Of a stretch of 64,000 bases of DNA, positions 37,527 to 60,947 are shown in pieces (position 1 is the first letter of the stretch; each line of letters begins with the position of its first letter). The notes below the pieces were generated by a model that searched no databases, was not told where the DNA came from, and saw nothing but the letters and a program-made list of their open reading frames with translations. The translations under genes and the position numbers were made by a program. The stretch is from NCBI GenBank assembly GCA_034928145.1, contig JAYFPE010000010.1, positions 27,882 through 91,881 on the forward strand. Direction: 5' to 3'. Source of the DNA: Candidatus Pelethousia sp. (lineage in GTDB: Bacteria > Bacillota > Clostridia > Christensenellales > CAG-138).

Positions 37527-37536
37527 AGGCTTCTCC

Positions 37537-39012: not shown

Positions 39013-39028
39013 ATATCCTTTCCTTTGC

Positions 39029-40648: not shown

Positions 40649-40689
40649 GTAAAGCTCCTTTCGTCAGTTCAGACCATACGCTTTATTTT

Positions 40690-41802: not shown

Positions 41803-41806
41803 CGCC

Positions 41807-44432: not shown

Positions 44433-44504
44433 AAAGTTTGCCCACCTTCATTGAGATGCTGTTTTTTCCATTATATCATAATTATATATCGTCTTATTAT
44501 AGAT

Positions 44505-44543
44505 TTCGGTTCGGGGAGATTCCAGGAATCTCCCCGAACCGAA
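44505..44543 (-). other. long perfect hairpin between the SBP gene and the ATPase gene
   Basis: TTCGGTTCGGGGAGATTCC-A-GGAATCTCCCCGAACCGAA: 19-nt perfect inverted repeat arms. Confidence 0.6.
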
Positions 44544-44592
44544 TATGGGATTCCGCTTTACGATTTAAAAATCCCGCTTATGTGCAGGCCAA

Positions 44593-45639
44593 TTAATACG
44601 GGCGGGCGTCCACGATATCCTGGGTGATGGTGTCGTAGTAGAAGGCGGCCTCGTCTACAACTTCGACCTTGGCGGGGGAGCCGCCGCCCTGGATCAGGTT
44701 GATCAGCTCGGCGACCTTGGGCCCGTGCAGCGGGTTGCACTCGACGTTGCAGTTGATCTTGCCTTCCAGCGTCATCTGGAGGTAAGCCCTGTTGGCGTCG
44801 AAGGAGATGATAGCCACGCCATCCTTGCCACCCACGGCAATGCCGGCCTCTTCGAGGGCCTGGATGGCGCCGTCGGCCATGTTATCGTTCTCGGCGTAGA
44901 CCACGTTGATATCCTTGTGCTGCTGGATCCAGGAAGCCATGATTTCCTTAGCCGTATCGGTGCTCCAGTCCGCGGTCTGCTGCTCGAGCAGGGTCCAGTT
45001 GGCGTTGGCTGCCACGGCCTCGGTCAGCGCCTCGCTGCGGCCTACCTGCGCGGAGGAACCGAGCTGGCCCTGCAGGTTGACGATGTTGACCGGCTGGTCG
45101 CTGGTGAAGCGGGTGGCGATCCAATCGGTAGCCTTCACGCCCTCGGCTTTGAAATCGGAGCCGACCCAGCAGGTGAAGAGGTCTTCGCTGGCGTTAATGG
45201 TACGGTCTACCAGGATCACGGGGATGCCGGCGTCCTTGGCATTCTTAAGCACGGTGTCCCAGCCATCCATGTTGACGGCGGCGATCACGATGTAGTCGAC
45301 CTCCTGGTCTATGAAGCCCTGCACATCGGCTACCTGCTTGGCTGCGTCGTTGTTGGCGTCGGCCAGGATCAGGTTGAAGCCATTCTCCGCGCTAAGGGCT
45401 TCCTGCATGGACTTGGTGTTCGCCTTGCGCCAGTCGGATTCATCCGCTTTGCACTGGGCAAAGCCTACGGTAATGAGGTCAGCGCCCGCCTCGGCGGCTG
45501 GGGCCGCGGGTTGTGCGGCGGGGGCTGCGGGTTCGGCGGGAGCCGCGGCAGGTGCCTCCGTAGTCGCCGCGGGCGCGCCGCAGGCAACCAGGCTCAGCGC
45601 CAGTACCAAAGTAAGGGCCATCGCAAGAAGTTTCTTCAT
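44593..45639 (-). CDS. sugar ABC transporter substrate-binding lipoprotein (YtfQ-like, furanose/arabinose-type)
   Basis: 348 aa. Lipobox LSLVAC, a Pro/Ala-rich tether, then ITVGFAQCKADESDWRKA..VDYIVIAAV..GWDTVLKNAKDAGIPVILVDR, which aligns by eye with E. coli YtfQ. Confidence 0.88.
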   Translation of the reverse strand: MKKLLAMALTLVLALSLVACGAPAATTEAPAAAPAEPAAPAAQPAAPAAEAGADLITVGFAQCKADESDWRKANTKSMQEALSAENGFNLILADANNDAAKQVADVQGFIDQEVDYIVIAAVNMDGWDTVLKNAKDAGIPVILVDRTINASEDLFTCWVGSDFKAEGVKATDWIATRFTSDQPVNIVNLQGQLGSSAQVGRSEALTEAVAANANWTLLEQQTADWSTDTAKEIMASWIQQHKDINVVYAENDNMADGAIQALEEAGIAVGGKDGVAIISFDANRAYLQMTLEGKINCNVECNPLHGPKVAELINLIQGGGSPAKVEVVDEAAFYYDTITQDIVDARPY

Positions 45640-45742
45640 TTTTCCTCTCTCCTTTTCTTTTTTCGATCTCTGCGATCATTGTGGACAGGATAGATTGACT
45701 CGAAAGCTCATTGAAGATATGACAGGATGCTTTCTTAGGGTC

Positions 45743-45771
45743 AGTATAATACGCGCAAAGGTATCTGTCAA
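45743..45771 (-). promoter_or_regulatory. candidate sigma-A promoter of the ABC-araBAD operon
   Basis: On the minus strand: TTGACA (45771-45766), 17 nt, TATACT (45748-45743). A TTGTATGGAACAA inverted half-site motif lies just upstream at 45776-45788. Confidence 0.5.
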
Positions 45772-45845
45772 CCATTTGTATGGAACAACTTGCTATAACT
45801 TTTTCTTTTACGATACAATTAATTCGGGAGGGTTCGGATAAAAAA

Positions 45846-45861
45846 ATACAAATTTTGTTTT
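45846..45861. promoter_or_regulatory. candidate AraR operator copy 1
   Basis: ATACAAATTTTGTTTT: a near-palindromic ACAAA(T)TTTGT core, repeated at 46013-46028. Confidence 0.35.
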
Positions 45862-46001
45862 AATTACGACGAAATGCGCCTGACTTCGGGCGGTTTTTCG
45901 CAGACATATCGAGCGGACGACCTTCACGCGGCCTGCCCACACATGCACATATTAATGAAAGACAAGCCCTTACCTAGATAAAATACAAGTTTAGATACCA
46001 C

Positions 46002-46030
46002 TTGAAAAGATGATACAAATTTGTTATGAT
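46002..46030 (+). promoter_or_regulatory. candidate sigma-A promoter of araR
   Basis: TTGAAA (46002-46007), 17 nt, TATGAT (46025-46030). The spacer contains the palindrome ACAAATTTGT. Confidence 0.5.
46013..46028. promoter_or_regulatory. candidate AraR operator copy 2 (overlaps the araR promoter spacer)
   Basis: ATACAAATTTGTTATG with the perfect 10-bp palindrome ACAAATTTGT (46015-46024). Confidence 0.35.
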
Positions 46031-46061
46031 GAACATAGAGTTTGAGGGTGGGGTGACGTAG

Positions 46062-47132
46062 TTGCTTAAATATCAGGAAATCGCCAATACATTGCGCAGG
46101 CAGATCGAGGATAATATTTTTACCGAAACCAAGAAGTTCCCCAGCGAACAGGCCCTTTGCCTGGAACATGGGGTCAGCCGCCAAACCATCCGGCACGCCC
46201 TGTCCGTATTGGTGCAGGAAGGGCTGCTTGAGCGGCAGCATGGCAGCGGTTCACGCGTGCGCGGCAAGGCGCAGCCCCTTCCGCCGCCACAGCGCTCCAT
46301 CGCGGTGATCACCACCTATATCAGCGATTATATCTTCCCCAGCATCCTGCGCGAAGTGGAAACCGTTTTATCCCGCAACAACTGCACCACCATGCTTTAT
46401 GCCACGCAAAACCAGGTGGTAAACGAGCGCCGCGTTCTGCAAGGCCTCTTGGCCCTGCCTAAGCTAGACGGCGTGCTGGTGGAGGGCACAAAAACGGCTT
46501 TGCCAAACCCCAACCTGGATTTATACCGCAAACTGATGGAGCGCAACATCCCCTTGGTATTCATGAACGGCAACTACCGGGAGCTGACGGACGCTATCTC
46601 TGTGCTGGATGATAACTATAACGGCGGCCGCCAGCTGGTGCAATATCTAACGGCAAAGGGCCATGCCCGCATCGCCGGCATGTTCAAAAGCGACGATATC
46701 CAGGGCCACCAGCGCTACGCCGGCTATGCCGCGGCCCTCTTGGACGCCGGCTTGCCCATGGAGGATAGCCAGCTTTACTGGTACAATACCGAAACCAAGG
46801 ACGCGCTGGCCAACGGCAACCTTATTTATACCGAACAGATGCTATCGGCTACCAAGGGCTGCAGCGCGGTGGTCTGCTATAACGATGAGATCGCCAGCCA
46901 ACTGCTGCTGGCCCTGCTAAACGCAGGGGTCAAGATTCCCGAAAAGATGGCTTTGGTCAGCTTCGACAACAGCCGCTACAGCGACCTCGGCCCCATCACC
47001 ATCACCTCGCTCTCCCACGGAGATCACAACGTGGGCAGGCTGGCAGCGCAAACCTTGATCAAGCTGCTTAGCGGCGAGCAATGCGAATCCCAGCTCGCGC
47101 CCTGGACGCTGATCGAAAAAGCAAGCAGCTAA
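46062..47132 (+). CDS. araR: arabinose-operon repressor AraR (GntR-type HTH fused to a LacI/PBP-type sugar-binding domain)
   Basis: 356 aa with a TTG start. N-terminal GntR HTH ..[22 protein letters not shown]... The block [21 protein letters not shown] is almost identical to B. subtilis AraR [21 protein letters not shown]. Divergent from the ara operon. Confidence 0.9.
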   Translation: [356 protein letters not shown]

Positions 47133-47149: not shown

Positions 47150-47187
47150 AAAAGGGCCGGATAATGATCGTCCGGCCCTTTTCTTTT
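47150..47187. terminator. bidirectional terminator between araR and convergent ptsI
   Basis: AAAAGGGCCGGA-TAATGATCG-TCCGGCCCTTTTCTTTT. Confidence 0.75.
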
Positions 47188-47205: not shown

Positions 47206-48915
47206 TTAGCCCGCAGCGTTTGCCAGCAGCGCCTTGACGGCTGCTTCCGTATCCAGGTTAATGACCTTTTGGCTAAGAGCCTGCGCTTCTTCAAGGGTGT
47301 ATTGGGCGAGCGCGCGCTTCACATCCGCGATGCAGGCCGCATTCATGCTGAACTTGCGCAGGCCCAGCCCGGCCAATGCGGGCGCGGCCAGGGCGGAGCC
47401 AGCCATCTCGCCGCATACGGAGACCGGCTTGCCCCTTGCGTTGAAGGCGTCCAACACCATCTTGATGGCGCGGAACATAGCTGGGGAAAAGCTTTGGTAA
47501 TAGCCGGCGACCTGGGCGTTCATGCGGTCCGCCGCGTGCAGGTATTGGCACAGGTCATTGGTGCCGATGCTGGCAAAATCGCACGCGGCAGCCACGACGT
47601 CCGCAAGGAGGGCGATGGAGGGGATCTCGATCATGATGCCTACAGGCATGCTTTCGTCAAAGGGGATCTGCTGGCCGCGCAGCTGCGCCCTGGCTTCTTC
47701 CAGGACCTCCTTGGCGGCGCGCAGGTCATCCAGTGAGCCGACCATGGGGAACATGATCTGCAGCTTGCCGTAAGCGGAGGCCCGCAAGGCGGCCCGCAGC
47801 TGGGTGAGGAAGAGCTCGCGCTTTTCGAGGCACAACCGCAGGGCGCGGCAGCCCAGGAAAGGGTTATCCTCCTTGGGCAGGGGCAGGGCGGGCAGGGTCT
47901 TATCCCCGCCCACATCCAGCGTGCGCAAGGTCACGGGGCGGCCCTTGGCCTGCTCGAGCACAGCGCGGTATACGGCGAACTGCTCCATTTCCGCCGGCAG
48001 GCGCTCGCTCTCCATATAGAGGAACTCCGTACGGAAAAGCCCCACGAAGCTGCATACCTCGATGGCGTCCTTATCCATGCGCGCGCCGATGTTGAGGCCG
48101 ATCTCCACAGGCGTGCCGTCTTTGAGGCGGGGCTCCTGGGCAAAATATTGGGCGGCGTCGCGCCGATCCGCCTGGTAGGCCGCGCGCTTTTCTTCATATT
48201 GGCGCAGGGCGGAAGCATCCGGATCGAGCAGCACCTCGCCGTTTAGCGCATCCACGATGACCGCGGCCCCGTGGGGCAGGGCCTTGGTGGCGTCCGGCAC
48301 GCCCAGCACGGCGGGGATGCCGAAGGCGCGGGCCAAGATGGCGGAGTGGGAGGTGGAGCCGCCTACTTCGGTAATGATGGCCAGTACATTCGCCCTATCC
48401 ATGGTAGCGGTATCGCTGGGCAGAAGGTCGTGGGCGACGACCACCACGGGGCAGCCGAGGCGAGAGAGGTTGCGCTCCGGCTCCCCGTGGAGGATGCGCA
48501 CCAAGCGGTTGCGCACATCCCGAAGGTCCATCGCCCGCGAGGCGATCAGCGGGTCCTTGGCGGCGCTCAAAAGGGCCGCGTATTCCGTAAATACCCGGTT
48601 CACGGCAAAATCCGGCGCCTGGCGGCGCTCCAGGATGGCCGCGCGGATCTCCTCATCCATCTCCTCGTCCCCGAGAAAGGCCCGGTGCGCCGAAAATATC
48701 TTGGCCTTATCCGCATCCCTCTGCGAGAAGGAGGCGATGATATCGCGCAGCTCCTTATCCGCCAGGCCTACGGCTTCCTGGTATTTGGCCACAGCGCCCA
48801 GCTCTTGGCCGGGCTGCACATAGGCTTCGAACACATCGCACGCATAGGCCTTGTATTGGTATACGCTGCCTGTGGATAGGCCCGGGGAAACGGGGTTTCC
48901 CTTGAAAATGCGCAT
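47206..48915 (-). CDS. ptsI: phosphoenolpyruvate--protein phosphotransferase (PTS enzyme I)
   Basis: Start at MRIFKGNPVSPGLSTG, 5 nt after the ptsH stop. Active-site His in GGSTSHSAILAR. PEP-utilising C-terminal TIM domain (GTNDLCQY). Confidence 0.95.
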   Translation of the reverse strand: MRIFKGNPVSPGLSTGSVYQYKAYACDVFEAYVQPGQELGAVAKYQEAVGLADKELRDIIASFSQRDADKAKIFSAHRAFLGDEEMDEEIRAAILERRQAPDFAVNRVFTEYAALLSAAKDPLIASRAMDLRDVRNRLVRILHGEPERNLSRLGCPVVVVAHDLLPSDTATMDRANVLAIITEVGGSTSHSAILARAFGIPAVLGVPDATKALPHGAAVIVDALNGEVLLDPDASALRQYEEKRAAYQADRRDAAQYFAQEPRLKDGTPVEIGLNIGARMDKDAIEVCSFVGLFRTEFLYMESERLPAEMEQFAVYRAVLEQAKGRPVTLRTLDVGGDKTLPALPLPKEDNPFLGCRALRLCLEKRELFLTQLRAALRASAYGKLQIMFPMVGSLDDLRAAKEVLEEARAQLRGQQIPFDESMPVGIMIEIPSIALLADVVAAACDFASIGTNDLCQYLHAADRMNAQVAGYYQSFSPAMFRAIKMVLDAFNARGKPVSVCGEMAGSALAAPALAGLGLRKFSMNAACIADVKRALAQYTLEEAQALSQKVINLDTEAAVKALLANAAG

Positions 48916-48919
48916 ATGC

Positions 48920-49198
48920 TCAGCCCTCGCCAAAGCCGCTGTTGATCAGCGCGGCGAGCTGGTTCACAGCCGCCTGCTCGTCGCCGCCCTCGGCGGAAAT
49001 TTCGATGTTGGTGCCGGCGTTGAGCCCTGCGGAAAGCAGGCGAACGATGGACTTTGCGTTTACCGCTACGGCGTCCGGGTCGTCCACGTTGCGGATGAGC
49101 ACCTGGGATTCAAAGCTCTTGGCAAGCGCCACCAGCTCGGAGGCCGGCCGCGCGTGCAGGCCGGAGGTGTTTTTGATCAGCACGTTTTGTACGTACAT
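48920..49198 (-). CDS. ptsH: phosphocarrier protein HPr
   Basis: 92 aa. His15 context NTSGLHARPAS. Ser46 context VNAKSIVRLLSAG. Confidence 0.93.
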   Translation of the reverse strand: MYVQNVLIKNTSGLHARPASELVALAKSFESQVLIRNVDDPDAVAVNAKSIVRLLSAGLNAGTNIEISAEGGDEQAAVNQLAALINSGFGEG

Positions 49199-49213
49199 GG
49201 CGAATGCTCCTTT

Positions 49214-50470
49214 CTATCCTTTCCAGTTCGCAAGAAGATAGGCTTCCGCCTGGGCGCACCATAAGCCCCGGTGCGCCTTGGTGATGGCGTGCAGCTCGCC
49301 AAAGCGCGCGTCCTTCTCAGCCAGGCTTGAAAAATCCTCGATCGCCGTGAGCGGCATGGCAATGTGGTTGTAGATGAGCTTTTTGCCGCCGGGTATCTTC
49401 GGCAGGTTGAGGATGGCGTTCGCTGCGCTGTTTAGCCCGCCGATGTGGGTCACCATAACGGCGGGTTCCGTGGCCCCGGCTTCGGAAAGGCGCAGGGCCT
49501 CCTTAAGATCGTCCGTATTGCCGCCTGTGGTGCCCATGATATGGGTGGAATTATAATGCGCGTCATAAAGGTTGATGCTGGCGCTGAAGGCGGGATCCAT
49601 GGGCCCGGCGAAGATGTTCATGCATCCGTCCCGGCCTAAAATAGCGTTGCCCAGCTCCGCCACGGCGGTCACGGGCGCAAAGACGAACACATCGTCGAAG
49701 CCGCCGCCTGCAAGCGCCCTCAAATGCACGGCCGGATCCGCCAGATCGGCGGTATTGACGAAGCGTACGTCCACGCCACTTTTTGCGGCCTTTTCGCGGA
49801 AGATCTCTTCCGCCCGGGCGAGGCGGGATTGGTCGATGTCGGCAATGACCAACAGACCCGGTCGCCTATCGCAACTGATGGCGTAATCCAGCGCGCCCAA
49901 GCCCATGGGTCCGGCGCCGGCCACAATGGCCGCCTTACCGCCCGGCACGATGCCCATCTCATGGTGGTAATCGCCCATGCGGGTGTGGTAAGCCGCGTGG
50001 AACGCGCCGATGTTGCAGCTCATCGGCTCGGCCAGGGAGGCCTCGAAATAAGCCTCGCCGCCGTATTCGAGGAAGCAGCCCAACTCCATCACCTCGGGCG
50101 GGATGATGCAATAGGTGGCGTTGCCGCCGAAATAGGGATAGGAATACCCGGGCGACCACATCGTGCCCTTGTAATTAAGCGCGGGCTGCAGGGTGAACTT
50201 GCCGCCTTCGCGGAATTTGCCCTTGTGCTTGGCCCCTACGGCCACGATATTGCCCGCCATTTCATGGCCCATGATGGTGGGGTTGTTTTCTAAATCCTTG
50301 GGTACGCGCTTGTGCTCCTGGCCCAGCATGGCGCATTTGTAGGTAGACATGCAGACGCTGTCCGAAATCACCTCAACCAGAATTTCATCGTCTTTCATCT
50401 CCGGCAGCTCGAATGTTTCCAGGCGCAAGTCGCCCGCGCCATAGAGCCGCACCGCGGTCGTTTTCATCAA
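49214..50470 (-). CDS. long (418 aa) zinc-dependent medium-chain dehydrogenase/reductase, SorE (ketose-1-phosphate reductase)-like
   Basis: N-terminal GroES-like fold with ..ILVEVISDSVCMSTYK..GHEMAGNIVAVG.. and Rossmann motif AIVAGAGPMGLGA. Its length and N-terminal sequence resemble proteins I recall being annotated as L-sorbose-1-phosphate reductase. Confidence 0.7.
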   Translation of the reverse strand: MMKTTAVRLYGAGDLRLETFELPEMKDDEILVEVISDSVCMSTYKCAMLGQEHKRVPKDLENNPTIMGHEMAGNIVAVGAKHKGKFREGGKFTLQPALNYKGTMWSPGYSYPYFGGNATYCIIPPEVMELGCFLEYGGEAYFEASLAEPMSCNIGAFHAAYHTRMGDYHHEMGIVPGGKAAIVAGAGPMGLGALDYAISCDRRPGLLVIADIDQSRLARAEEIFREKAAKSGVDVRFVNTADLADPAVHLRALAGGGFDDVFVFAPVTAVAELGNAILGRDGCMNIFAGPMDPAFSASINLYDAHYNSTHIMGTTGGNTDDLKEALRLSEAGATEPAVMVTHIGGLNSAANAILNLPKIPGGKKLIYNHIAMPLTAIEDFSSLAEKDARFGELHAITKAHRGLWCAQAEAYLLANWKG

Positions 50471-50485
50471 AACATCCCTCCCATC

Positions 50486-51415
50486 TTATAGCCGCGTGAT
50501 TTTCACGCCCGATACATAAGCCTCCGCCTGCGCGCGGGTAGGGGGGCTGCTGCCCGGGCGGGTGACCTTGGCCGCGGCCGCAGCCATAGCAAATCGCACG
50601 GCCTCTTCCTTGCCCAGGCCCCGCTCCTTGGATAAGAGCAGGCCGGCGATAAGGGTATCCCCGGCGCCCACCGTGCTCACGGCCTCTACCTTAGGGGCTT
50701 CGGCAAAGAGCATGCCCGCTTCATCCGCAAAGATCGCTCCCTTTGCGCCCATGGAAACCGCCACCATGGCGATGCCGCCATCAACCAGGCGGCCGGCCGC
50801 GGCGGCCAGGGTCTCCAGCCGTGTATCGGCCAGGCCGCAAAGCTCGGCCATCTCCTGCGCGTTGGGTTTGATGAGGAAGGGCTTGCTTTTGGCCATGGCC
50901 TTAAGCAGAGCCCCATCCATATCGGCGGCCACCCGCACGCCCCGGGCTGCCAGGGCTACTGCCCAGCGGGCCGGCAGATCCGCCGCCACGCCCTCTGGCG
51001 CGCTGCCTGCAAACAGCAGCGTATCGCCACTCTGCACCCGGGCGGATATCCGCCCGAACAGTTCGTCGAGCGCGGCAGGGGGGACGGGGGAGCCCGGCTC
51101 GTTAATATCCGTATAGGTATGGTGCAGGGGGTCGAACACCTTGAGGTTGGTGCGCGTTTGCCCGGGCACGGATACGAAATCACATAGAACGCCCATTTCC
51201 GCCAGCGCAGCGAGAAGCGTTTCGCCGGAGCCGCCGCCAGCAAACCCCATGGCGATGGATTCGCAGCCAAAGCTCTTAAGCGCCTTGCTCACATTTACGC
51301 CCTTGCCGCCCGCGTCTATGCGCATATGGGAAACGCGGTTGACCGCATCCAGCGTAAAGCCGCTTATCGTTACGGATTTATCCAGCGCGGGGTTGAGCGT
51401 TACGGTAAAGATCAA
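50486..51415 (-). CDS. fruK: PfkB-family sugar-phosphate kinase (1-phosphofructokinase / tagatose-6-phosphate kinase type)
   Basis: 309 aa. MIFTVTLNPALDKS..DAGGKGVNVSKAL and C-terminal GAGDTLIAG. Cannot be separated from LacC by eye. Confidence 0.8.
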   Translation of the reverse strand: MIFTVTLNPALDKSVTISGFTLDAVNRVSHMRIDAGGKGVNVSKALKSFGCESIAMGFAGGGSGETLLAALAEMGVLCDFVSVPGQTRTNLKVFDPLHHTYTDINEPGSPVPPAALDELFGRISARVQSGDTLLFAGSAPEGVAADLPARWAVALAARGVRVAADMDGALLKAMAKSKPFLIKPNAQEMAELCGLADTRLETLAAAAGRLVDGGIAMVAVSMGAKGAIFADEAGMLFAEAPKVEAVSTVGAGDTLIAGLLLSKERGLGKEEAVRFAMAAAAAKVTRPGSSPPTRAQAEAYVSGVKITRL

Positions 51416-51888
51416 GTCCGCTCACCTCCGCCGGTCAGCCGGGCATAGATGAAGGCCGGATCCGTGGCGTGGCGAAGCTGGTCAAAGGATTCCTCATCCA
51501 GCATCATATTGGCCAGGGCTTGCAGGATGGGCAGATGCTCATCCTCCTTGCCGGCGATGCCCACCACGAGATACGCAAGCTCATCCCCAAAGGGCACGCC
51601 TGCGGGGAATTGCAGCACGCAAAGCCCGGTGCTGTGAATCAGGGACTTGGCCTCGCCTACGCCATGGGGGATGGCCACGCCCTCGCCGATGTAGGTGGTC
51701 ACCACGTTTTCGCGCTCGATCATGGCCTCTATATAACCCGCATCCACGCAGCCGCGCTCTGTTAACAGTTCGCCTGCCATGCGGATGGCTTCGTATTTAT
51801 CCGCCGCGCGAAGGCCCGTGCGAACGTCCTGTGGGCGCAGGGCTGCGAGGCGGGAAGGTTTCTGTGGCACGGTTGCCAGCTTTTCCAT
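51412..51888 (-). CDS. mtlF: PTS EIIA component, mannitol/fructose class
   Basis: 158 aa. TYIGEGVAIPHGVGEAKSLI..LVVGIAGKEDEHL aligns by eye with the EIIA domain of E. coli MtlA (TYLGESIAVPHGTVEAKDRV..LVIGIAARNNEHI). Confidence 0.88.
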   Translation of the reverse strand: MEKLATVPQKPSRLAALRPQDVRTGLRAADKYEAIRMAGELLTERGCVDAGYIEAMIERENVVTTYIGEGVAIPHGVGEAKSLIHSTGLCVLQFPAGVPFGDELAYLVVGIAGKEDEHLPILQALANMMLDEESFDQLRHATDPAFIYARLTGGGERT

Positions 51889-51898
51889 AAAGTTCTCC

Positions 51899-53956
51899 TT
51901 ATTGATTGATTATTTCACAATAATATGTGTTCAATATTCTCTCCACCGCATGATGGCAGGATTGCGCATCACCGCGGCAGAGTGTCTTGATGAAGGCGGG
52001 TTCCTCAACCAGGGCGCGGGAGATGGCGCCCAACGTTTCCAGGGTTTGCTTTTGCGCTTCCCTTTGCGCCAGCATGACCAGCGCCAGCTTGGGCAGGCCC
52101 GCGGGCTGATCCTCTTTGGCGCGGATAATGCCCAGCCAGGCCTGGGATACGCCCTCGGTGCGGCAATGCAGCAGCATGGTCTCCCCATCCGGGGTGATGG
52201 TGCTGCCCAGCTTCTCACGCTCGCAGAGATCCGCCCGCACGGCGGCCGTCTGCTCAGGCGTGCCCGCCGTATGCCGCGCGATGCGGGCGATGAGGCCGGG
52301 CATATCCGCCAGATCGCCATCCTCCCATAAAAACAGGCCGGAGAGGATTTGCAAAATGGTATCGATCGCCGTGCGCGTGCGGGCCAGGGTGGTTACCAAG
52401 TCGCTGAGCTGTACGCCCGCGCTCGTTTTGGGCGGCTCGCTTTTGCAGGCCTTGAGCAATTGCCACACGGCGTCCTTTTCCGGGTCCGTGAGGAAGGGGG
52501 AGACCTGTACGCTGGGCAGGTCGACCTGCGGCAGCTGCACGGTGGAAATGATCATCTCGATGCTATCACGCTCAAGCTGGGCGGAATCCAGCTTGGCTGT
52601 GGAAACGACGTCTTTAACTTCGATATCGGAAAATTCGCGTTTGATGCGCAGGGCCAAAAGCTGCGCCGTAACCATGCCGCTGGGGCAGCAGATGATGGCC
52701 CGGCAGCGCCGGGAGGAATAGCTGCGGCTGTCTTCCAGGGCTACGCCCAGGTGCACGGCCAGGTAGCCGATCTCGGAATCCGGCACCTCGGTGTGCAGCT
52801 CGTCTACCAGCTCCTTCGCGCATTCCTGCGCCAAGTCGTAGAGCTCGCCGTAATGGGCCTTCACATCCTCCAAGATGGGGTTGCGGATATCCAGCCCCAT
52901 AGAGAGGCGGGCGATGGTGGGCACAAGGTGGCGCTGCAGCGCCTCGGTAAAGCCCGCGGCCGGGTCGATCATCACGCCGGTGCGCGCCTGCGCGCGCAGG
53001 ATCATGCGCTCTGCGATACGCGCGGCCTGGCGCTCGGATTCCCGGTCGGAAATGCCGCTCAGGCCCTGGGAGCTTTGCAGCACGGAGGAAAGGTAAAAGC
53101 GCTCGCCATTGGGGATGCGTATGGAAAAATGCGCTTCCAGCGCGCAGATCAGGATATTGGCCAGGCTGCCTGCCGCCGCATAGGTGCAAACGCCGTCCTG
53201 CTCCTCGATACCCGCGCCCTGGGATACCCTAAGCAACAGCAGGTATAGATGCAGGGCCAGGGCCTTGCGGCCGCGGTCGTTTTGGATCATGCCCGCAAGC
53301 TCGGGGATGCTGTCCAGCAAGCGCTCGATCTGGCCCAAGAAGGCGGGCGGGAAGAGCTTGCGCGAATCGAAGGCGTCCTGTATGCCGTTAAGAGCCGGGG
53401 CCATGTTATCCAATTTATGTTTATGGCTTTCGGCCTGCTCATAATAGAGCCGCACCAACGCCCGCCTGCGCAACCATTCGTCCGCTTCCACGTAGATGCC
53501 TACGCCGGGCTTACGCACCAGGGGGACGCCGTTTTCAGCCAGCCATTTTTCGCAATGATTAAGATCGGAACCAACGGTGGTATCCGTAATGCCAAGGTTT
53601 CGGGTAAAGGAATAAATTTTTTGGGGCTGGGCTTCCATCAGCAGCCGCATAAGAATGGCGGCGACTCGCTCTTCCTGCGAGAATACGGGCCGCAGCTTTT
53701 CCGGACCGCCCATTTTTTTAAGCAGATTCATGCGCTGCTCCCTGCCGCCGCAAAAGCGCACGCCGCTGCCGCTTTTCACTTCGATCAGGCGCCCATCCTC
53801 GCCAAGGCAGGCGGTGAGCGCTTCCAGCTCGCGCTGGATGGTGCGCTTGCTAAGGCCGAGGCGCTCCGCGAGGGAGGCCATGGTTTTATAGCCATCGCCT
53901 TCCAGCGCCAGGTTTAGCAATTCATATTGGCGGGTCGTAAGCGTCAAGACTTGCAC
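51899..53956 (-). CDS. mtlR: MtlR/LicR-type PRD-domain transcriptional activator (HTH, Mga-like, 2x PRD, EIIB-like, EIIA-like)
   Basis: 685 aa. N-terminal HTH TRQYELLNLALEGDGYKTMASLAERLGLSKRTIQRELEAL. PRD-type His-containing repeats. EIIB-like RAIICCPSGMVTAQLL. C-terminal EIIA-like region. Confidence 0.85.
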   Translation of the reverse strand: MQVLTLTTRQYELLNLALEGDGYKTMASLAERLGLSKRTIQRELEALTACLGEDGRLIEVKSGSGVRFCGGREQRMNLLKKMGGPEKLRPVFSQEERVAAILMRLLMEAQPQKIYSFTRNLGITDTTVGSDLNHCEKWLAENGVPLVRKPGVGIYVEADEWLRRRALVRLYYEQAESHKHKLDNMAPALNGIQDAFDSRKLFPPAFLGQIERLLDSIPELAGMIQNDRGRKALALHLYLLLLRVSQGAGIEEQDGVCTYAAAGSLANILICALEAHFSIRIPNGERFYLSSVLQSSQGLSGISDRESERQAARIAERMILRAQARTGVMIDPAAGFTEALQRHLVPTIARLSMGLDIRNPILEDVKAHYGELYDLAQECAKELVDELHTEVPDSEIGYLAVHLGVALEDSRSYSSRRCRAIICCPSGMVTAQLLALRIKREFSDIEVKDVVSTAKLDSAQLERDSIEMIISTVQLPQVDLPSVQVSPFLTDPEKDAVWQLLKACKSEPPKTSAGVQLSDLVTTLARTRTAIDTILQILSGLFLWEDGDLADMPGLIARIARHTAGTPEQTAAVRADLCEREKLGSTITPDGETMLLHCRTEGVSQAWLGIIRAKEDQPAGLPKLALVMLAQREAQKQTLETLGAISRALVEEPAFIKTLCRGDAQSCHHAVERILNTYYCEIINQ

Positions 53957-53972
53957 CTCCCCCCGCCGCCAG

Positions 53973-54006
53973 CCGGAGGAAGGGCGGCTTGCGGCCCTTC
54001 CTCCGG
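53973..54006 (-). other. 13-bp perfect GC-rich hairpin between mtlA and mtlR
   Basis: CCGGAGGAAGGGC-GGCTTGCG-GCCCTTCCTCCGG. No U-run on either strand. Confidence 0.6.
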
Positions 54007-54029
54007 GAGACGGTTATTGGGAATTAACG

Positions 54030-55409
54030 CTATTGGGTGAGTTCCGTGATGAACGAATCATATTCGGAAGCGTTCATAAAGCTGTTGATGGGAAAGATCT
54101 TCGCAGCCGGTACCTTGGCGCGCACACGGTCCACCAGCGAGTTCTGAGTCAGCACATACTGCGCGTCCGTGGGGATCTCCTCGATGGAGCTGTGCTGCAC
54201 CTTGGCGTCAAAGCCCAGCGAATTGAGGCGCTTGCGCAGCGTGGTCGCGCCCATGGCGCTCGAGCCCATGCCGGCGTCGCAGGCAAAGACGATTTTGGCG
54301 CTCAGAGCCTGAACCTGGCCTTTGCTCTCCAGCTTTCTAGACTTGACATCCTGCTGGGCAGCCAGCAGGGCGTCCTCATCCGTTTCCCTGCGGGCGGAGA
54401 GTTTTACGAAAACGGAGGCTACTAGGAAGGAGATGGCGCAGGAGGTGAGCACGCCCAACAATACGATCAGGGTGTCGCCCTTGGGCGCCATGGCCAGCAG
54501 GGCAAAGATGCTGCCCGGGGAGGGCGTGGCCACAAGGCCCGCGCCGGTGATAACATAGGTAAGCACGCCGGTCGCGCCGCCGGCGATCACGGCCAGCAGC
54601 AGCGCGGGATTCATTAGTACGAAGGGGAAGTAGATCTCATGGATGCCGCCCAGGAAATGGATGACGGCCGCGCCGGGCGCGGTGCTCTTGGCCTGGCCCT
54701 TGCCAAAGAGCCAATAGGCCAGGATAATGCCCATGCCGGGGCCGGGGTTGGTCTCGATGAGGAACATGATGGATTTACCCAGCGCGGCGGCCTGTTCCAT
54801 GCCGATGGGGCCCATGATACCATGATTGATGGCGTTGTTCAAGAAAAGGATCTTGGCGGGCTCCACGAAGATGGAGATTAGGGGCAGAAGGCCCGCGTTG
54901 TAGATGAGGTTTGCGCCGCCGGTGAGGATGGCGGTGATGGCCGCGACAAAGGGCCCTACGAGATAGTAGCCGATGATGGCCAGGATGGTGCCGATGATGC
55001 CGAGCGAGAAGTTGTCGACCAGCATTTCAAAGCCGGCCTTGACCTTGCCTTCGATGGCGGCGTCGAACTTTTTAAGGATCCAGCCGGAAAGCGGCGCATA
55101 CATCATGATGCCGAGGAACATAGGGATGTCTGAGCCTACGATGAGGCCGATGGCGGCCACGCAGGCGATAACCGCGCCGCGCTGGCCGTGGATGTTTTTG
55201 CCCGCGGTATAGGCTACCAGCAAGGGCAGCAGGTTAGAGAGCATCGGGCCTACCAGCGTGGCCAGTTTTTCGTTGGGCAGCCAGCCGGTTCCAATGAACA
55301 AGGCCGTGATCAGGCCCCAAGCCACGAACGCGCCAATGTTCGGCATAACCATTGCGCTAAGGCTGCGGCCTACCCTCTGTACAGTTGCTTTTAAGTTACT
55401 GTTTGACAA
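54030..55409 (-). CDS. mtlA: PTS mannitol-class EIICB transporter
   Basis: 459 aa with a TTG start 7 nt after GGGGGT. Collinear with E. coli MtlA EIICB (VQRVGRSLSAMVMPNIGAFVAWG, FVEPAKILFLNNAINHGI, LIETNPGPGMG, HFLGGIHEIYFPFVLMNP, EIIB Cys in VFACDAGMGSSAMG). Confidence 0.93.
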   Translation of the reverse strand: MSNSNLKATVQRVGRSLSAMVMPNIGAFVAWGLITALFIGTGWLPNEKLATLVGPMLSNLLPLLVAYTAGKNIHGQRGAVIACVAAIGLIVGSDIPMFLGIMMYAPLSGWILKKFDAAIEGKVKAGFEMLVDNFSLGIIGTILAIIGYYLVGPFVAAITAILTGGANLIYNAGLLPLISIFVEPAKILFLNNAINHGIMGPIGMEQAAALGKSIMFLIETNPGPGMGIILAYWLFGKGQAKSTAPGAAVIHFLGGIHEIYFPFVLMNPALLLAVIAGGATGVLTYVITGAGLVATPSPGSIFALLAMAPKGDTLIVLLGVLTSCAISFLVASVFVKLSARRETDEDALLAAQQDVKSRKLESKGQVQALSAKIVFACDAGMGSSAMGATTLRKRLNSLGFDAKVQHSSIEEIPTDAQYVLTQNSLVDRVRAKVPAAKIFPINSFMNASEYDSFITELTQ

Positions 55410-55485
55410 TGTGATTACCCCCTTTTTATTTGTTTCGACTGGGTATAAGAAGTGTTAAACAGATCCCGGGGTCTTGGTTGCTTAT

Positions 55486-55515
55486 ATTATAGGTGGTGCC
55501 GGAAAGCAATTGCAA
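55486..55515 (-). promoter_or_regulatory. candidate sigma-A promoter of the PTS operon
   Basis: On the minus strand: TTGCAA (55515-55510), 18 nt, TATAAT (55491-55486), about 75 nt upstream of the TTG start. Confidence 0.4.
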
Positions 55516-55713
55516 TCTTAAGAAGATGCGTCTTGGCCGCTGCCAAACGTGACAAATCCTGGATAATACGTTTATGTCCACATCCGTTTTGACAGGTTTT
55601 TGCCAGCGGGGGGAAGGCTCAAATACGAAACGCGTGAGAGAACGATCAGAAAAATAGCTTACGGAGTGCCCTAATTTACGTTGTGCGCTTCTATGCGCGC
55701 CTACTATTGGGTA

Positions 55714-55739
55714 GAAAAAAAGCCGGACAGACGCCGGCT
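55714..55739 (-). terminator. rho-independent terminator (minus strand) downstream of the hydantoinase gene
   Basis: The minus strand reads AGCCGGC-GTCTGT-CCGGCT followed by TTTTTTT. Confidence 0.7.
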
Positions 55740-55875
55740 TGATCCTGTTGATGCTTTGACGGTAGGTAGAATGCTCTTCCAACTTTATGGGGGCCAGATT
55801 CGACTAACTTTGCATTTGAACGGGGTTCGCTTTGTATTTTCCTGTGTTGCCTTAACCGGGATTTTGGGAAGCAAT

Positions 55876-57225
55876 TTATGGCCGACGATATCGCGCGCTC
55901 TTTGTACGAGGCAGATACCGGCCTATGCCGGGGCACAGCAATTTGCCATTGCGGACGACCTGGCGCCCGCCGATTAGAACATCACGGGCGGCGCCTTCGA
56001 CACACAGCCCGGAAAAAATCGAAGCATCGCAGTCATGCGCATGATTGGTATCGGTAATCGTGCTTTTTATAGCGGGATCCCAAATGACGACGTCCGCCGC
56101 GTATCCTTCCCGGATGACGCCATAGTCCGTAAGGCCGAATAGTGCTGCGGCATTTGCGGAAAGCAGCCCAACCATGCGCTCCGGCGTAATACGGTCGGCG
56201 AGGACGCCAAAGGTATGCAGCAATTGCGGGCGATGCTGTATGCTGGCGCAGCCGTTTGGCACCAGGGAGAAGTTGTCGGCATATTCCAGCTTTTGCTCCA
56301 TGGAAAAGGAACAATGGTCTGTTCCGATCACGTCGATTTCACCGCCTTGCAGCGCTGTCCAGAGAGCGGCTTGATCCTCCGGCTTGCGCAGGGGGGGGCT
56401 TAAGATAAATTTGACGCCATCGGCCTGCGCATATTTGGCATCGTTTAGCAGCAGATATTGCATGCAGGTTTCTACGTAGACCTCCTGGCCGCGCGCCCGC
56501 GCCCGGCGGACTTCCTCTAGGCCCTCCATCGTAGAAAGATGCACGATATACGCGGGCGCTTGCGCCAGTTGCGCAATCCGTAAAAAACGCGCCACAGCCT
56601 CAGCTTCCACGGCTGGCGGCCGGCTCAGAGGGTGACCAGACGCGCCTACAACGCCCCTTTTCAGGACCTCCTGTGTAATGCGGAGCAGCACCTCCCAATT
56701 TTCACAATGCACGCCCAGCAAATAATCATACCGGCGCAGCGCGCGCAGCGCGCCGTAAATCTCGCCATCGTCAACCTTGAGCCCATTGTAAACCATATAC
56801 ATTTTGAAGGAAGATATGCCTTTACGCCCAATATGGGGGAGCTCATCTTCCAGGGCATCCGTCCATTCGGTAAGCGCCATGTGGAACCCATAATTCGTAC
56901 TGCTGCCCGCGGCTTTTTTTAGCCAGTCCGCAAGCGCGTCTTCCATCGTGCAGCCGCGCTGCTGATTGGCAAATTCCAATACGGCCGTGGTGCCGCCCAG
57001 CACCGCCGCCTTGGTATCTTGCACAAAAAGGTGGGGCGAGAGTTCCAGGTGGGTATGTGTATCGATAAAACCGGGCATCACATAGCAGCCTTGGGCATCT
57101 AGTACGATATCGGCATCCGGCAATTCGGGGCCGATCCGCGTAATCCGATCGTCCTGAACCAGCAAATCGGTTTTACGCCGACCATCGGCATTGATGATGG
57201 TGCCATTTTGAATCCGAACAGACAT
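55876..57225 (-). CDS. cyclic amidohydrolase of the dihydropyrimidinase / D-hydantoinase family
   Basis: 449 aa. PGFIDTHTHLE metal site, carboxylated-Lys context SFKMYMVYN, VHCEN, GTDHCSF, and the amidohydrolase fold. Confidence 0.85.
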   Translation of the reverse strand: MSVRIQNGTIINADGRRKTDLLVQDDRITRIGPELPDADIVLDAQGCYVMPGFIDTHTHLELSPHLFVQDTKAAVLGGTTAVLEFANQQRGCTMEDALADWLKKAAGSSTNYGFHMALTEWTDALEDELPHIGRKGISSFKMYMVYNGLKVDDGEIYGALRALRRYDYLLGVHCENWEVLLRITQEVLKRGVVGASGHPLSRPPAVEAEAVARFLRIAQLAQAPAYIVHLSTMEGLEEVRRARARGQEVYVETCMQYLLLNDAKYAQADGVKFILSPPLRKPEDQAALWTALQGGEIDVIGTDHCSFSMEQKLEYADNFSLVPNGCASIQHRPQLLHTFGVLADRITPERMVGLLSANAAALFGLTDYGVIREGYAADVVIWDPAIKSTITDTNHAHDCDASIFSGLCVEGAARDVLIGGRQVVRNGKLLCPGIGRYLPRTKSARYRRP

Positions 57226-57249
57226 GCTTGTTCCTTCCCCATACAGTAG

Positions 57250-57858
57250 CTAACGAATGAAATTCACCTTCTTGCAAAGCGCCTCACAGGCAGCTTGCTT
57301 GCGTTGGTTAAAGAGGACTTTATTCTCCTCAAATAAGTTGTCGCCCCGGCTGTCAACGGATACAATCAGCGGCCCCAGTTCTTTGACTCTGCACACCCAT
57401 AGGCTTTCCGGCATGCCGAGATCGGTCCATTCCACCCTTTCGATTTCCTCAACCGCATTGGCGGCCAGAACCGCACACCCCGCAGGGAATACGCAATGCA
57501 GCGCCTGATGATCCCGACAGCCGGCCGATGTGCCTGCACCCATAGCGCCCTTGCCGACAATCAGCCTCACACCGGTTTCCGCAATAAATTGCCGCTCAAA
57601 CTTTTCCATGCGCATGCTGGTCGTCGGCCCGATGGAAACCATCTCATAGGCGCCGTCCGCACTTTTGCGAACGATCGGCCCGGCATGGAAAATAGCGCTG
57701 TCGCGCACGGAAACGGGCAGGGGTATGCCCTCCTCGATTAACCGGCGATGGCCGACATCGCGGCAGGTAACGATGTGCCCGGTATAGTAGATCACATCCC
57801 CGATCCGGATGGACGCGAGATCCTCTTTGCTGATGGGTTCGGTTAAAGTTTTTTTCAT
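57250..57858 (-). CDS. Fe-S hydro-lyase beta subunit (L(+)-tartrate dehydratase TtdB / class I fumarate hydratase C-terminal type)
   Basis: 202 aa. ..[39 protein letters not shown].. is typical of the TtdB/FumA_C family. ATGA overlap with the alpha subunit. Confidence 0.85.
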
Positions 57859-58751
57859 AATGATACCCCCTTGTGGGAAATAACATCATAGCTGCCATCT
57901 GCGTGGAATACGATACGGCCCCGGCGGTGCGACCAACAGCCCGTGCTGACCGCCACGCCTATGGTGGAAGGATGCCTGGCCGCATTCTCGATATGTACGG
58001 CCAGCACGGAGCGCTTGCCGGAAAGGCCCTGTGGGCCCAGGCCGATCGAGTCGATGGCGGCGGCCAGTTCGGTCTCCAAGAAAGCGCCCCGTTCGTTTGG
58101 ATTGTGCGTACCGAGCGGGCGTAGCAGGGCGCGCTTGGATAGCTTTGCGGCTGTTTCTAGGGAGGTGGCAATGCCCAGCCCCACGACCAGCGGCGGACAG
58201 GCGTTGAGCCCATAGGAGGTCATAATATCCAAAACAAATTCCACAACGCCTTCATATCCGGCGCCGGGCATCAGCACCATGCCCCGGCCGGGCAGCGTAC
58301 AGCCCCCTCCCGCCATATAGATATCCAGCGTCAGGTCACTGCTGCCAGGAACCAGTTCCCAATCAACGCAAGGGACGCATAAACCGGTATTATCCCCGGT
58401 GTTATATTCATCAAAGGTTTGCACGGCATTGTGGCGCAGCGGCGCACGTACCGTCGCCTCCCGCACCGCGGCGTCAAAGATGCCGGGCAGCGCCGATAAT
58501 AGTGGATACTCCGTCCCTACGGCAGGGAAGAACTGTATAACGCCGGTATCCTGGCAACACGGGCGATCCAACGCTTTTGCCAGCTCCTGATTGTCGAACA
58601 TGGCGTCATAAACAAGCTTTGGCAGAGGTTCGGTTTCCTGCGCACGCAGTTCCGCCAGTTTTTGGATGATGTCGTCTGGCAGCACCTTAGAGACATGGCA
58701 AATAAACCGGGATAGAATTTCGACTATCACCGCTTCATTGGTTATTGGCAT
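57855..58751 (-). CDS. Fe-S hydro-lyase alpha subunit (TtdA / class I fumarate hydratase N-terminal type)
   Basis: 298 aa. The CCQDTGV cluster-ligand motif, and GGGC.. and ..[10 protein letters not shown].. blocks. Confidence 0.85.
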
Positions 58752-58768
58752 GAAAGTGAATGCTCCTT

Positions 58769-59548
58769 TCAGGTATCGTTATGCGTGGGGTCGGGATAGA
58801 TGCATACTATATCACTGGCTTTCATATGGTCCATATATTCGCTCGGCGGCTCTTTTTCGGCAACTACATAATTCATATCGTCGAAGGATGCGTAGGAGAA
58901 CAATGCGGCTTTGCCATATTTATCCGTATCGGCCAGCAGGGCGATGTGTCCTTTGTTTTGCTGAACCAACTGGCGCTTGATAGCTTCCTCAAAATAGGAA
59001 TTAATGGTTAAGCCGCGATTCAGAGAAACGCCGGTAGCGCTCATCAACACAAGGTCAAAGGTAAGGCTTGAAAGGGTTTCGATCGTGGATGCCCCGATAA
59101 ACGAACTTGTGGCGCTGTCGTAAAATCCCCCCAGAGACACCAGCTCCAAATTTGGGTAATGGGGAATTTCCGTCATGACCTTGAGATTGCTGGTGACGAT
59201 GGTGATATTGTTTTTTTTCTCAAGATACGGCAGCACATTGGTCGTGGTAGTGCCCGTATCGATAAACACGGTGGAATTATCCTGCACAAGCTGCGCAGCC
59301 AGCGCGCCGATGACATGCTTGGAGGAAACGTTTGTTTTTTCACGCTGGCTGATCGGAATCGGAACCGATGAGGAAATAGCCATCACGCCGCCATAAACTT
59401 TTTTGATATGGCCGTTTTTCAAAAGCTCGGAAATATCCCTTCGGATGGTGTTGACCGATACAGAAAAATGGTCGGCTAACTCATTGAGCGAAACATTGCC
59501 GCGCTCTACGATAAAGGCTTCCATCTCATTGATACGATTCAGGCGCAT
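58769..59548 (-). CDS. DeoR-family transcriptional regulator
   Basis: Start at ATG 59548 (MRLNRINEMEAFIVERGNVSLNELADHFSVSVNTIRRDISEL), preceded by AAGGAG. C-terminal DeoR sugar-phosphate-binding domain. Confidence 0.88.
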   Translation of the reverse strand: MRLNRINEMEAFIVERGNVSLNELADHFSVSVNTIRRDISELLKNGHIKKVYGGVMAISSSVPIPISQREKTNVSSKHVIGALAAQLVQDNSTVFIDTGTTTTNVLPYLEKKNNITIVTSNLKVMTEIPHYPNLELVSLGGFYDSATSSFIGASTIETLSSLTFDLVLMSATGVSLNRGLTINSYFEEAIKRQLVQQNKGHIALLADTDKYGKAALFSYASFDDMNYVVAEKEPPSEYMDHMKASDIVCIYPDPTHNDT

Positions 59549-59574
59549 AAATATAAATTCTCCTTTTTTAGATA

Positions 59575-60036: not shown

Positions 60037-60054
60037 GGGCATCAGTCCCTTCTT

Positions 60055-60882: not shown

Positions 60883-60947
60883 TTGAATACCCCCTGCATC
60901 TCTAATTTGGTCATGTTGTACCATTATATAACCGGCATTTTAACGAT

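Follow-up and report, generated by a model that had tools for sequence, protein, structure and literature searches.

The 64,000-nt stretch of contig JAYFPE010000010.1 from Candidatus Pelethousia sp. analyzed here, hereafter the window, carries on its minus strand a seven-gene operon for a phosphotransferase system (PTS) of the mannitol class. The operon is devoid of MtlD, the dehydrogenase that completes canonical mannitol operons, and harbors in its slot a 1-phosphofructokinase (FruK) and a zinc-type medium-chain dehydrogenase/reductase (MDR) related to Escherichia coli YggP. Gene linkage and displacement of MtlD from the same slot in related operons give good support to viewing it as a mannitol PTS operon whose catabolic module has been replaced. 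We estimate a probability of about 0.6 that mannitol-1-phosphate is oxidized next to its phosphate to fructose-1-phosphate, which is then converted to fructose-1,6-bisphosphate. The operon as a whole would probably serve as an inducible and self-sufficient PTS catabolic unit for mannitol or a very close hexitol.

In the proposed pathway, the phosphoryl group would be transferred from phosphoenolpyruvate (PEP) to Enzyme I (EI; His196), HPr (His15), EIIA (His75), and EIIB (Cys377), and EIIC would import mannitol as mannitol-1-phosphate. The YggP-type dehydrogenase would use NAD+ to oxidize the C2 hydroxyl beside the phosphate ester, yielding fructose-1-phosphate. In contrast, MtlD oxidizes the distal C5 to give fructose-6-phosphate. 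Phosphorylation of fructose-1-phosphate by FruK at the expense of ATP would then give fructose-1,6-bisphosphate for glycolysis. As the ATP and NADH yields would be the same as those of the MtlD and Pfk route, this module would represent a non-orthologous replacement of MtlD. A bypass of MtlD had been proposed in a preliminary description of this DNA. That proposal stands insofar as FruK and the MDR travel with the mannitol-class PTS in dozens of species, without MtlD and in its slot, but the phenotypes of cultured carriers are mixed. In the literature searched, we found no paper on a route from mannitol-1-phosphate to fructose-1-phosphate or on a step from a hexitol-1-phosphate to a ketose-1-phosphate.

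Organization of the operon

Gene identities were assigned by Pfam and NCBIfam profile scans, and NCBIfam scores were compared with the curated cutoffs. Seven minus-strand open reading frames (ORFs) at 47206-55409 encode EIICB, an MtlR-type regulator, EIIA, FruK, the MDR dehydrogenase, HPr, and EI, in this order.

54030-55409, minus strand: mannitol-class PTS EIICB, 459 aa (PF02378 and PF02302; NF011663, 618.2 bits versus a cutoff of 589; TIGR00851, 498.9 versus 468.4)
51899-53956, minus strand: MtlR-type PRD regulator, 685 aa as listed (HTH_11, Mga, and PRD, the last at 74 bits)
51412-51888, minus strand: PTS EIIA of the mannitol/fructose class, 158 aa (PF00359, 107.6 bits; IPHG motif with His75)
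50486-51415, minus strand: 1-phosphofructokinase FruK of the PfkB family, 309 aa (TIGR03828 equivalog, 317.7 bits versus a cutoff of 292)
49214-50470, minus strand: NAD-type zinc MDR dehydrogenase of the YggP/SorE family, 418 aa, or 417 aa from ATG 50467 (ADH_N and ADH_zinc_N)
48920-49198, minus strand: HPr phosphocarrier, 92 aa (PF00381; TIGR01003, 77.8 bits versus 47.9; His15)
47206-48933, minus strand: PTS EI, 575 aa as listed (three PEP-utilizer domains; TIGR01417, 551 bits versus 341.7; His196 in GGSTSHSAI)

The gene order, the spacing, and a terminator only after ptsI had all been described previously, and our analysis bears them out. All seven ORFs are present with identities confirmed by the profile scans. 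The intergenic gaps computed from the ORF list are 73, 10, -4, 15, 15, and -14 nt from EIICB to ptsI, as expected from the described distances of 10-15 nt or overlaps apart from 73 nt between mtlA and mtlR; the start of fruK overlaps the stop of the EIIA gene by 4 nt. The first canonical terminator is located at 47150-47182, just beyond ptsI, and internal matches are weak and confined to mtlR. The described span of 47206-55515 is correct at its lower end, which is ptsI, but 55515 belongs to the noncoding -35 hexamer of the promoter. Comparison with homologues suggests TTG 53947 as the likely start of mtlR, which extends the mtlA-mtlR gap to 82 nt, and, together with the start-codon context, ATG 48915 as the likely start of ptsI, which gives a 569 aa protein and a 4-nt gap without overlap. 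The dehydrogenase possibly starts at ATG 50467.

The preliminary description had raised the question of a separate mtlD and of other ptsHI copies. Within the 64-kb window, we found neither an mtlD homologue, using E. coli MtlD and three Firmicute MtlD proteins (PF01232/PF08125 family) as queries, nor a second ptsH or ptsI. The operon genes also include no tagatose-bisphosphate aldolase or other further downstream enzyme.

The EIICB transporter shares 54% identity with E. coli MtlA and 49% with CmtA, and E. coli MtlA has the identical IIB motif, CDAGMGSS, at the corresponding relative position (residue 384; Cys377 in the window protein). The scores above the curated mtlA subfamily cutoffs place it in the MtlA/CmtA subfamily of the Fru/Mtl family. 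EIIA is 41% identical to the IIA domain of E. coli MtlA and matches FruB-type IIA models as well. In the MtlR-type regulator, the PTS_IIB match lies slightly below its cutoff (23.2 versus 23.6 bits) and a CCPSG motif is found at residue 423. A C-terminal EIIA_2 domain was undetected at E ≤ 1e-3, and homologues in the same operon position carry a C-terminal PF00359 domain.

The kinase had previously been described as a member of the PfkB family, with FruK and LacC as the candidates to be distinguished. It passes the FruK equivalog cutoff, and the LacC model scores far below its own; PfkB-II, TagK, and ribokinase were rejected on the same grounds.

MtlD and FruK with the MDR occupy the same operon slot

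Homologues of the window EIICB were collected with this protein as the query, and their genomic contexts were inspected at falling identity. The transporters with 75%, 69%, 61% (Clostridium prolinivorans), and 59% identity (Halocella sp. SP3-1) are encoded in EIICB-MtlR-EIIA-PfkB-MDR operons, and a homologue with 63% identity belongs to an operon that has the MDR without the kinase. Those with 60% (Clostridium sp. Cult1, L091), 58% (Brevibacillus, L093), and 54% identity (Priestia abyssalis, L092) are found in operons ending in MtlD of the PF01232/PF08125 family, in the form EIICB-MtlR-EIIA-MtlD or MtlR-EIICBA-MtlD. In a neighbor-joining tree of the transporters, sequences linked to MtlD, E. 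coli MtlA being one of them, branch among those linked to the MDR. This interleaving indicates that the same type of transporter couples to either MtlD or FruK and the MDR, and completion of the same skeleton by either bears the signature of a non-orthologous displacement in which the PTS product stays the same.

The Halocella locus (L090, 6001-13404) contains both an EIICB and a separate EIICBA gene, which flank mtlR upstream of the PfkB-MDR pair. The two transporters pair with each other in the tree as nearest relatives, a pattern suggestive of recent duplication.

The dehydrogenase is related to YggP and SorE

The window MDR reaches no curated NCBIfam cutoff, and database names for such proteins are limited to 'zinc-binding dehydrogenase' or 'threonine dehydrogenase-like'. 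In tblastn comparisons with plasmid and chromosome records that carry annotation, the enzyme shares 54% identity with E. coli YggP across its full length, 46-48% over 99% of the length with annotated SorE of Klebsiella, Citrobacter, and Serratia, and 44% with a Lactiplantibacillus plantarum protein. An exact-sequence look-up with its 418-aa and 417-aa forms matched no record. A neighbor-joining tree separated the SorE clade (Klebsiella and L. plantarum) from a clade comprising YggP, the Photobacterium homologue, and all Firmicute sequences including that of the window. Judged by its 54% identity, its position in the same clade, and the adjacent mannitol-class PTS, the window MDR is classified as a YggP-type orthologue. 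The resemblance to SorE noted in the preliminary description is real at the family level, with 46-48% identity and the zinc positions retained, but YggP is nearer, and the enzyme belongs to neither the SorE clade nor the GatD group.

An alignment of eight sequences revealed invariant residues at the zinc-ligand positions of sorbitol dehydrogenase (Cys40, His69, Glu70, and Glu148) and an invariant Asp211 aligned with the NAD-specifying Asp of that enzyme. The basic residues K45, H53, K54, K363, and K364 are invariant and common to the window MDR and SorE, and they are candidates for binding the phosphate. The proposed oxidation mirrors the reduction of L-sorbose-1-phosphate to D-glucitol-6-phosphate by SorE, and its stereochemistry can be reasoned as follows. 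L-sorbose is the C5 epimer of D-fructose, and D-glucitol-6-phosphate and D-mannitol-6-phosphate, the latter of which is the same as mannitol-1-phosphate, differ only at the distal C2. As L-sorbose and D-fructose differ only at C5, chemistry of the SorE type on mannitol-1-phosphate would give fructose-1-phosphate. In the older literature, Klebsiella SorE is reported to accept fructose-1-phosphate.

We also considered GatD, sorbitol dehydrogenase, and IolM as identities of the MDR and rejected them. Identity to annotated GatD-type proteins is approximately 26%, the nearest solved structures, those of sorbitol dehydrogenases and a ketose reductase, match at just ~1e-13, and the corresponding NCBIfam scores are far below the cutoffs. 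Separately, a set of proteins of 540-590 aa (P0354-P0390) matches the MDR at 30-33% identity in two separate stretches and appears to represent a related family with a large insertion or an extra domain.

FruK and the MDR form the constant core of diverse loci

The MDR family is compact, accounting for 215 of 1.84 billion 50%-identity cluster representatives at E ≤ 1e-30, and its members are common, with more than 549 confirmed matches in one-genome-per-species GTDB contigs. Around 80 of these, the loci (designated by L numbers) were scored by a tblastn panel. Neighbor calls were based on tblastn panels and targeted Pfam/NCBIfam scans because longest-ORF clustering is unsound here owing to long antisense ORFs and GC-rich loci. 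Counts were restricted to the 41 MDR-bearing loci with at least 5 kb on both flanks. FruK is encoded within 6 kb in 32 of them and a mannitol-class PTS in 28; 19 have both, none has neither, and MtlD is found in 0/41.

Five architectures recur among the loci. The first, EIICB-MtlR-EIIA-FruK-MDR-HPr-EI, is that of the window, Ca. Pelethousia, and metagenome-assembled genomes (MAGs) of Christensenellaceae, and is reordered in L034, L069, and L078; the nearest locus is from an uncultured Oscillospiraceae MAG (L037, 94-96% aa identity to the window), and a Candidatus Pelethousia locus (L002) shows 66-82%. In the second, represented by Agathobaculum, Butyricicoccus, and Faecalibacterium MAGs, a divergent MtlA (IICBA) faces MtlR-FruK-MDR-DeoR. 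The third, in which a divergent FruK faces MDR-DeoR-MtlA (IICBA), is found in Holdemanella, Faecalitalea, Faecalicoccus, and Lachnospiraceae, and the FruK equivalog model gives the divergent kinase of Holdemanella 348 bits.

The other two architectures have non-PTS transporters. In Caproiciproducens faecalis (L020, 7992-15315) and a Bacillota MAG (L064, 7711-15492), DeoR-FruK-MDR is followed by an ATP-binding cassette (ABC) importer consisting of a TOBE-domain ATPase, a fused permease of 550 aa, and a binding protein similar to 2-aminoethylphosphonate and thiamine binders. This importer may take up an organophosphate directly. The fifth architecture combines DeoR-FruK-MDR with an FGGY kinase, a PF01663 protein of the alkaline phosphatase superfamily, and a CUT1 sugar ABC transporter (L012, 8148-18778; also L014, L033, L038, L050, and L064). 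The FGGY kinase is nearest to xylulokinase yet below its cutoff, and its presence suggests that ATP-dependent phosphorylation of an imported polyol feeds FruK and the MDR.

Despite these rearrangements, the linkage of the MDR is kept across Clostridia, Erysipelotrichia, and gamma-proteobacteria. FruK and the MDR are the constant core, and what varies is the supply of a presumably phosphorylated substrate. The non-PTS variants are consistent with a phosphorylated MDR substrate and with FruK acting after the MDR. It seems evenly balanced whether the YggP clade represents an unrecognized mannitol-1-phosphate 2-dehydrogenase that would form, together with FruK, a mannitol pathway independent of MtlD and widespread among Clostridia and Erysipelotrichia of the gut and rumen.

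A DeoR-family regulator gene is located immediately downstream of the MDR gene in most loci of the Erysipelotrichaceae, Lachnospiraceae, and Agathobaculum type (including L018, L023-L025, L029, L036, L040-L041, L045, L051-L053, L055-L063, L066-L068, and L077). These MDR-linked copies are ~45-57% identical to the C. faecalis regulator used as the probe. The DeoR gene of the window at 58769-59674 was considered as a FruR-like regulator of this kind and rejected, as its product is just 27% identical to the probe and probably unrelated. The sole trace of the Mannitol_dh family among the loci is a fragment at the edge of a Caloramator quimbayensis locus (L027, 3-737), ~9 kb from the MDR and 22-26% identical to MtlD. 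It is probably another long-chain polyol/uronate oxidoreductase and not MtlD.

Substrate and direction of the pathway

Several points weigh against the mannitol-1-phosphate pathway. The curated mtlA models are passed also by the cryptic CmtA and do not discriminate specificity, so the homology class of the transporter does not fix the substrate. Nine loci have the PTS and the MDR but no FruK within 6 kb. Among cultured carriers of the cassette, Faecalitalea cylindroides and Faecalicoccus pleomorphus are mannitol-negative in a compiled phenotype table, a type of source of uneven reliability, and these two carriers argue against a universal assignment to mannitol. The trees of the dehydrogenase and the transporter are neighbor-joining trees without support values. 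An AlphaFold2 model of the MDR built on a 20-sequence alignment (mean predicted local distance difference test 58.9; predicted template modeling score 0.54) is too poor to be used for the fold or the phosphate pocket. No paper on the function of YggP was found in the literature searched, and the E. coli cmtBA-yggP locus is regarded as cryptic.

The same operon logic might serve another substrate, such as glucitol phosphorylated at C1, galactitol (leading to tagatose-1-phosphate), allitol, or a rare sugar or ketose. We consider this unlikely, although it is favored by the permissive mtlA models, by the mannitol-negative record of two of the three cultured carriers, and by the association of the MDR-FruK core with non-PTS transporters. 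Moreover, the FruK family includes tagatose-1-phosphate kinases that equivalog models may fail to separate. On the other hand, transporters linked to MtlD and to the MDR intermingle and resemble the window EIICB to the same degree (54-63%), the kinase passes the 1-phosphofructokinase equivalog cutoff, and the operon is devoid of the aldolase or other downstream enzyme. In addition, the third cultured carrier, Holdemanella biformis, is mannitol-positive, sorbitol-negative, and fructose-negative in the same compiled table. The type-strain genomes of all three species (L055, L062, and L066) have the MDR-DeoR-MtlA arrangement with divergent FruK.

The MDR could alternatively work in the reductive direction, making mannitol-1-phosphate from fructose-1-phosphate either to dispose of electrons or to synthesize mannitol; the PTS would then import fructose or mannitol, and FruK would be the true catabolic enzyme. 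SorE, the sole named relative, is physiologically a reductase, the EII families for fructose and mannitol are related, and EIIA also matches the FruB-type models. This direction is nevertheless very unlikely: the regulator and the transporter are of the MtlR/MtlA type in a canonical mannitol operon skeleton, the MDR takes the exact slot of MtlD, and the NAD-type Asp is conserved. Furthermore, the mannitol-1-phosphate produced would need a phosphatase or MtlD, neither of which is present.

Transcription signals and the embedded ptsHI genes

The following elements were found around and within the operon.

55720-55740, minus strand: intrinsic terminator of the upstream amidohydrolase gene, with a 7-bp stem containing 5 G-C pairs followed by a T-run
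55530-55555, minus strand: operator-like imperfect inverted repeat TTGTCAC...CCAAGAC, directly upstream of the -35 hexamer
55486-55515, minus strand: predicted sigma-70-like promoter, TTGCAA and TATAAT with an 18-nt spacer, matching the consensus at 10/12 positions
53966-54013, minus strand: GC-rich intercistronic stem-loop without a U-tract, with a 13-bp core at 53973-54006, in the 73-nt mtlA-mtlR gap
47150-47182, both strands: bidirectional terminator of ptsI and the convergent araR-like gene, with a 13-bp stem AAAAGGGCCGGA...TCCGGCCCTTTT between A and T runs

The terminator at 55720-55740 is the 5′ boundary of the operon unit. This hairpin and that at 47150-47182 are the only strong terminators near the operon; weak consensus matches are located on the minus strand at 53130-53146 inside mtlR. 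Since the scan yielded 14 sites in total versus 11.3 expected from shuffles and is near the chance level, we regard only the two flanking hairpins as convincing. A single predicted promoter-to-terminator unit carries the whole phosphorelay of EI, HPr, EIIA, and EIICB.

The inverted repeat upstream of the promoter occurs once in the window versus 0.04 expected by chance, and L002-L005 and L008 carry the same motif at the same position, ~120-140 nt before the EIICB start. L006, L027, and L034 contain related TTGTCA...TGACAA repeats. The location of the window repeat, immediately 5′ of the -35 hexamer, suits a promoter that depends on an MtlR-type activator, and the repeat is the probable binding site of MtlR. 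MtlR, controlled by PTS phosphorylation, would presumably activate the promoter through this conserved repeat.

The stem-loop between mtlA and mtlR has a folding energy of -46.6 kcal/mol (z = -4.66), and 0/200 shuffled sequences fold as well. Stems of 11-20 bp with different sequences are located at the same place in L002-L006, L008, L021, and L034. As the relatives keep the stem with differing sequences, the element is conserved in structure. Its most plausible role is protection of the 3′ end of the transporter mRNA or partial attenuation of read-through, and some RNA processing may take place there; it would probably set the ratio of the transporter mRNA to the downstream mRNA. A scan of the whole window at the Rfam gathering thresholds detected no known RNA families.

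The strong conserved hairpin that parts mtlA from the remaining operon would suit mere co-location, in which a separate mtlD elsewhere handles mannitol-1-phosphate and FruK, the MDR, and ptsHI serve other sugars or are separately expressed, but this is highly improbable, since the linkage is kept across the three bacterial groups, no strong terminator precedes ptsI, the internal matches in mtlR being weak, and the gaps, at -4 to 15 nt, are too short to accommodate internal promoters.

The window HPr is atypical for a Firmicute as judged by profile scores. It fails the Firmicute/Gram-positive HPr equivalog model PRK13780 (55.6 versus 110 bits), and the FPr and NPr models score equal or higher. 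Ser50 is the counterpart of Ser46 in other HPr proteins. The ptsH-ptsI pair follows the MDR in the window, L002-L006, L008, L037, and L086, and is found at other positions in L009, L034, L069, L078, and L081. Closely related operons without ptsHI exist (L087-L090), and the embedded genes look like a self-contained, portable PTS module. Sugar-specific clusters with their own EI and HPr include Pseudomonas fruBKA, in which FruB supplies them, haloarchaeal ptfC-ptsI-ptsH-pfkB, and Corynebacterium ptsI-fruR-pfkB-ptsF-ptsH. Because of these precedents, the embedded ptsHI pair is notable but not new in kind. The preliminary description was fair in calling it unusual, and the arrangement is conserved in the clade of the window, but the precedents temper that claim.

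Neighboring genes

A complete L-arabinose utilization unit adjoins the PTS operon at 36834-47132. Its AraR-like regulator (46062-47132, plus strand), with a GntR-type helix-turn-helix and a LacI-type sugar-binding domain, faces a minus-strand arabinose operon encoding a sugar-binding protein, an ABC ATPase, two permeases, an FGGY kinase, L-arabinose isomerase, and a class II aldolase/epimerase. Upstream of the PTS operon, the region at 55876-60924 encodes an amidohydrolase (55876-57225), a two-subunit class I fumarate hydratase (57250-58751), the DeoR regulator, and a xylose-isomerase-like TIM-barrel protein. These genes have no apparent link to the PTS operon.

Significance and comparison with known systems

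Mannitol is a common dietary polyol and belongs to the sweeteners among the fermentable oligo-, di-, and monosaccharides and polyols (FODMAPs). The cassette occurs widely among anaerobes of the gut and rumen and is currently unannotated; if it works as proposed, annotation based on mtlD would miss mannitol catabolism in many of these taxa. Gut Clostridia and Erysipelotrichia have been reported to deplete cecal sugar alcohols (PMC8375055). In the proposed pathway, polyol catabolism would also pass through fructose-1-phosphate, which is known as an effector of regulators of the FruR/Cra type, and many related loci have a DeoR-type regulator by the MDR. If true, variants of the FruK-MDR core supplied by ABC importers and an FGGY kinase would bring non-PTS uptake into the pathway as well.

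Among known systems, the E. coli K-12 locus cmtB-cmtA-yggP-yggF-fumE(yggD)-yggC and its Photobacterium counterpart tie a mannitol-class EIICB/EIIA to YggP, as in the window. Unlike the window, the E. coli locus has neither FruK nor a PRD-type MtlR. In place of FruK, this proteobacterial cassette (L001, 3977-9331, E. coli K-12; L085, 6153-10584, Photobacterium) has YggC, a P-loop protein of the nucleoside/nucleotide kinase family that might take the kinase role, and the small MtlR-like FumE/YggD; the E. coli version also encodes the type II fructose-1,6-bisphosphatase YggF. Our proposal offers a testable hypothesis for the orphan K-12 gene yggP and the cryptic cmt PTS, and the same chemistry would, if true, explain the function of the cmtBA-yggP locus.

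SorE from the sor operon of Klebsiella, E. coli, and Lactobacillus belongs to the same long MDR family (~410-420 aa) and is 44-48% identical to the window MDR. It shares the zinc-ligand positions and several invariant basic residues but falls in a separate clade. Physiologically a reductase, SorE converts L-sorbose-1-phosphate to D-glucitol-6-phosphate at the carbon beside the phosphate. Its context sorC-D-F-B-A-M-E encodes a sorbose PTS of the Man family (IIA/B/C/D) and a short-chain dehydrogenase/reductase acting on glucitol-6-phosphate, with no mannitol-class PTS or FruK, and among the loci compared it is confined to the Klebsiella and L. plantarum proteins. GatD (galactitol-1-phosphate 5-dehydrogenase) and the arabitol-phosphate dehydrogenases of Enterococcus and Listeria are likewise zinc MDR enzymes that oxidize a PTS-derived polyol phosphate. 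The annotated GatD-type proteins are shorter (~350 aa), and GatD oxidizes the distal carbon to form a ketose-6-phosphate.

In fructose PTS operons (fruRKA/fruBKA), fructose-1-phosphate is the committed intermediate and FruK is the exit enzyme, as proposed for the window. These operons produce fructose-1-phosphate directly by the PTS, whereas the window operon interposes a dehydrogenase and has a transporter and a regulator of the mannitol type. In its EIICB, MtlR, and EIIA skeleton and their order, the window operon matches the canonical Firmicute mtlA-mtlR-mtlF-mtlD operon of the Geobacillus, Bacillus, and Clostridium type, and its putative activator site beside the -35 hexamer adds to the resemblance. 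It differs in that the MtlD slot of the latter is held by FruK and the YggP-family MDR and in that the clade of the window appends ptsH-ptsI.

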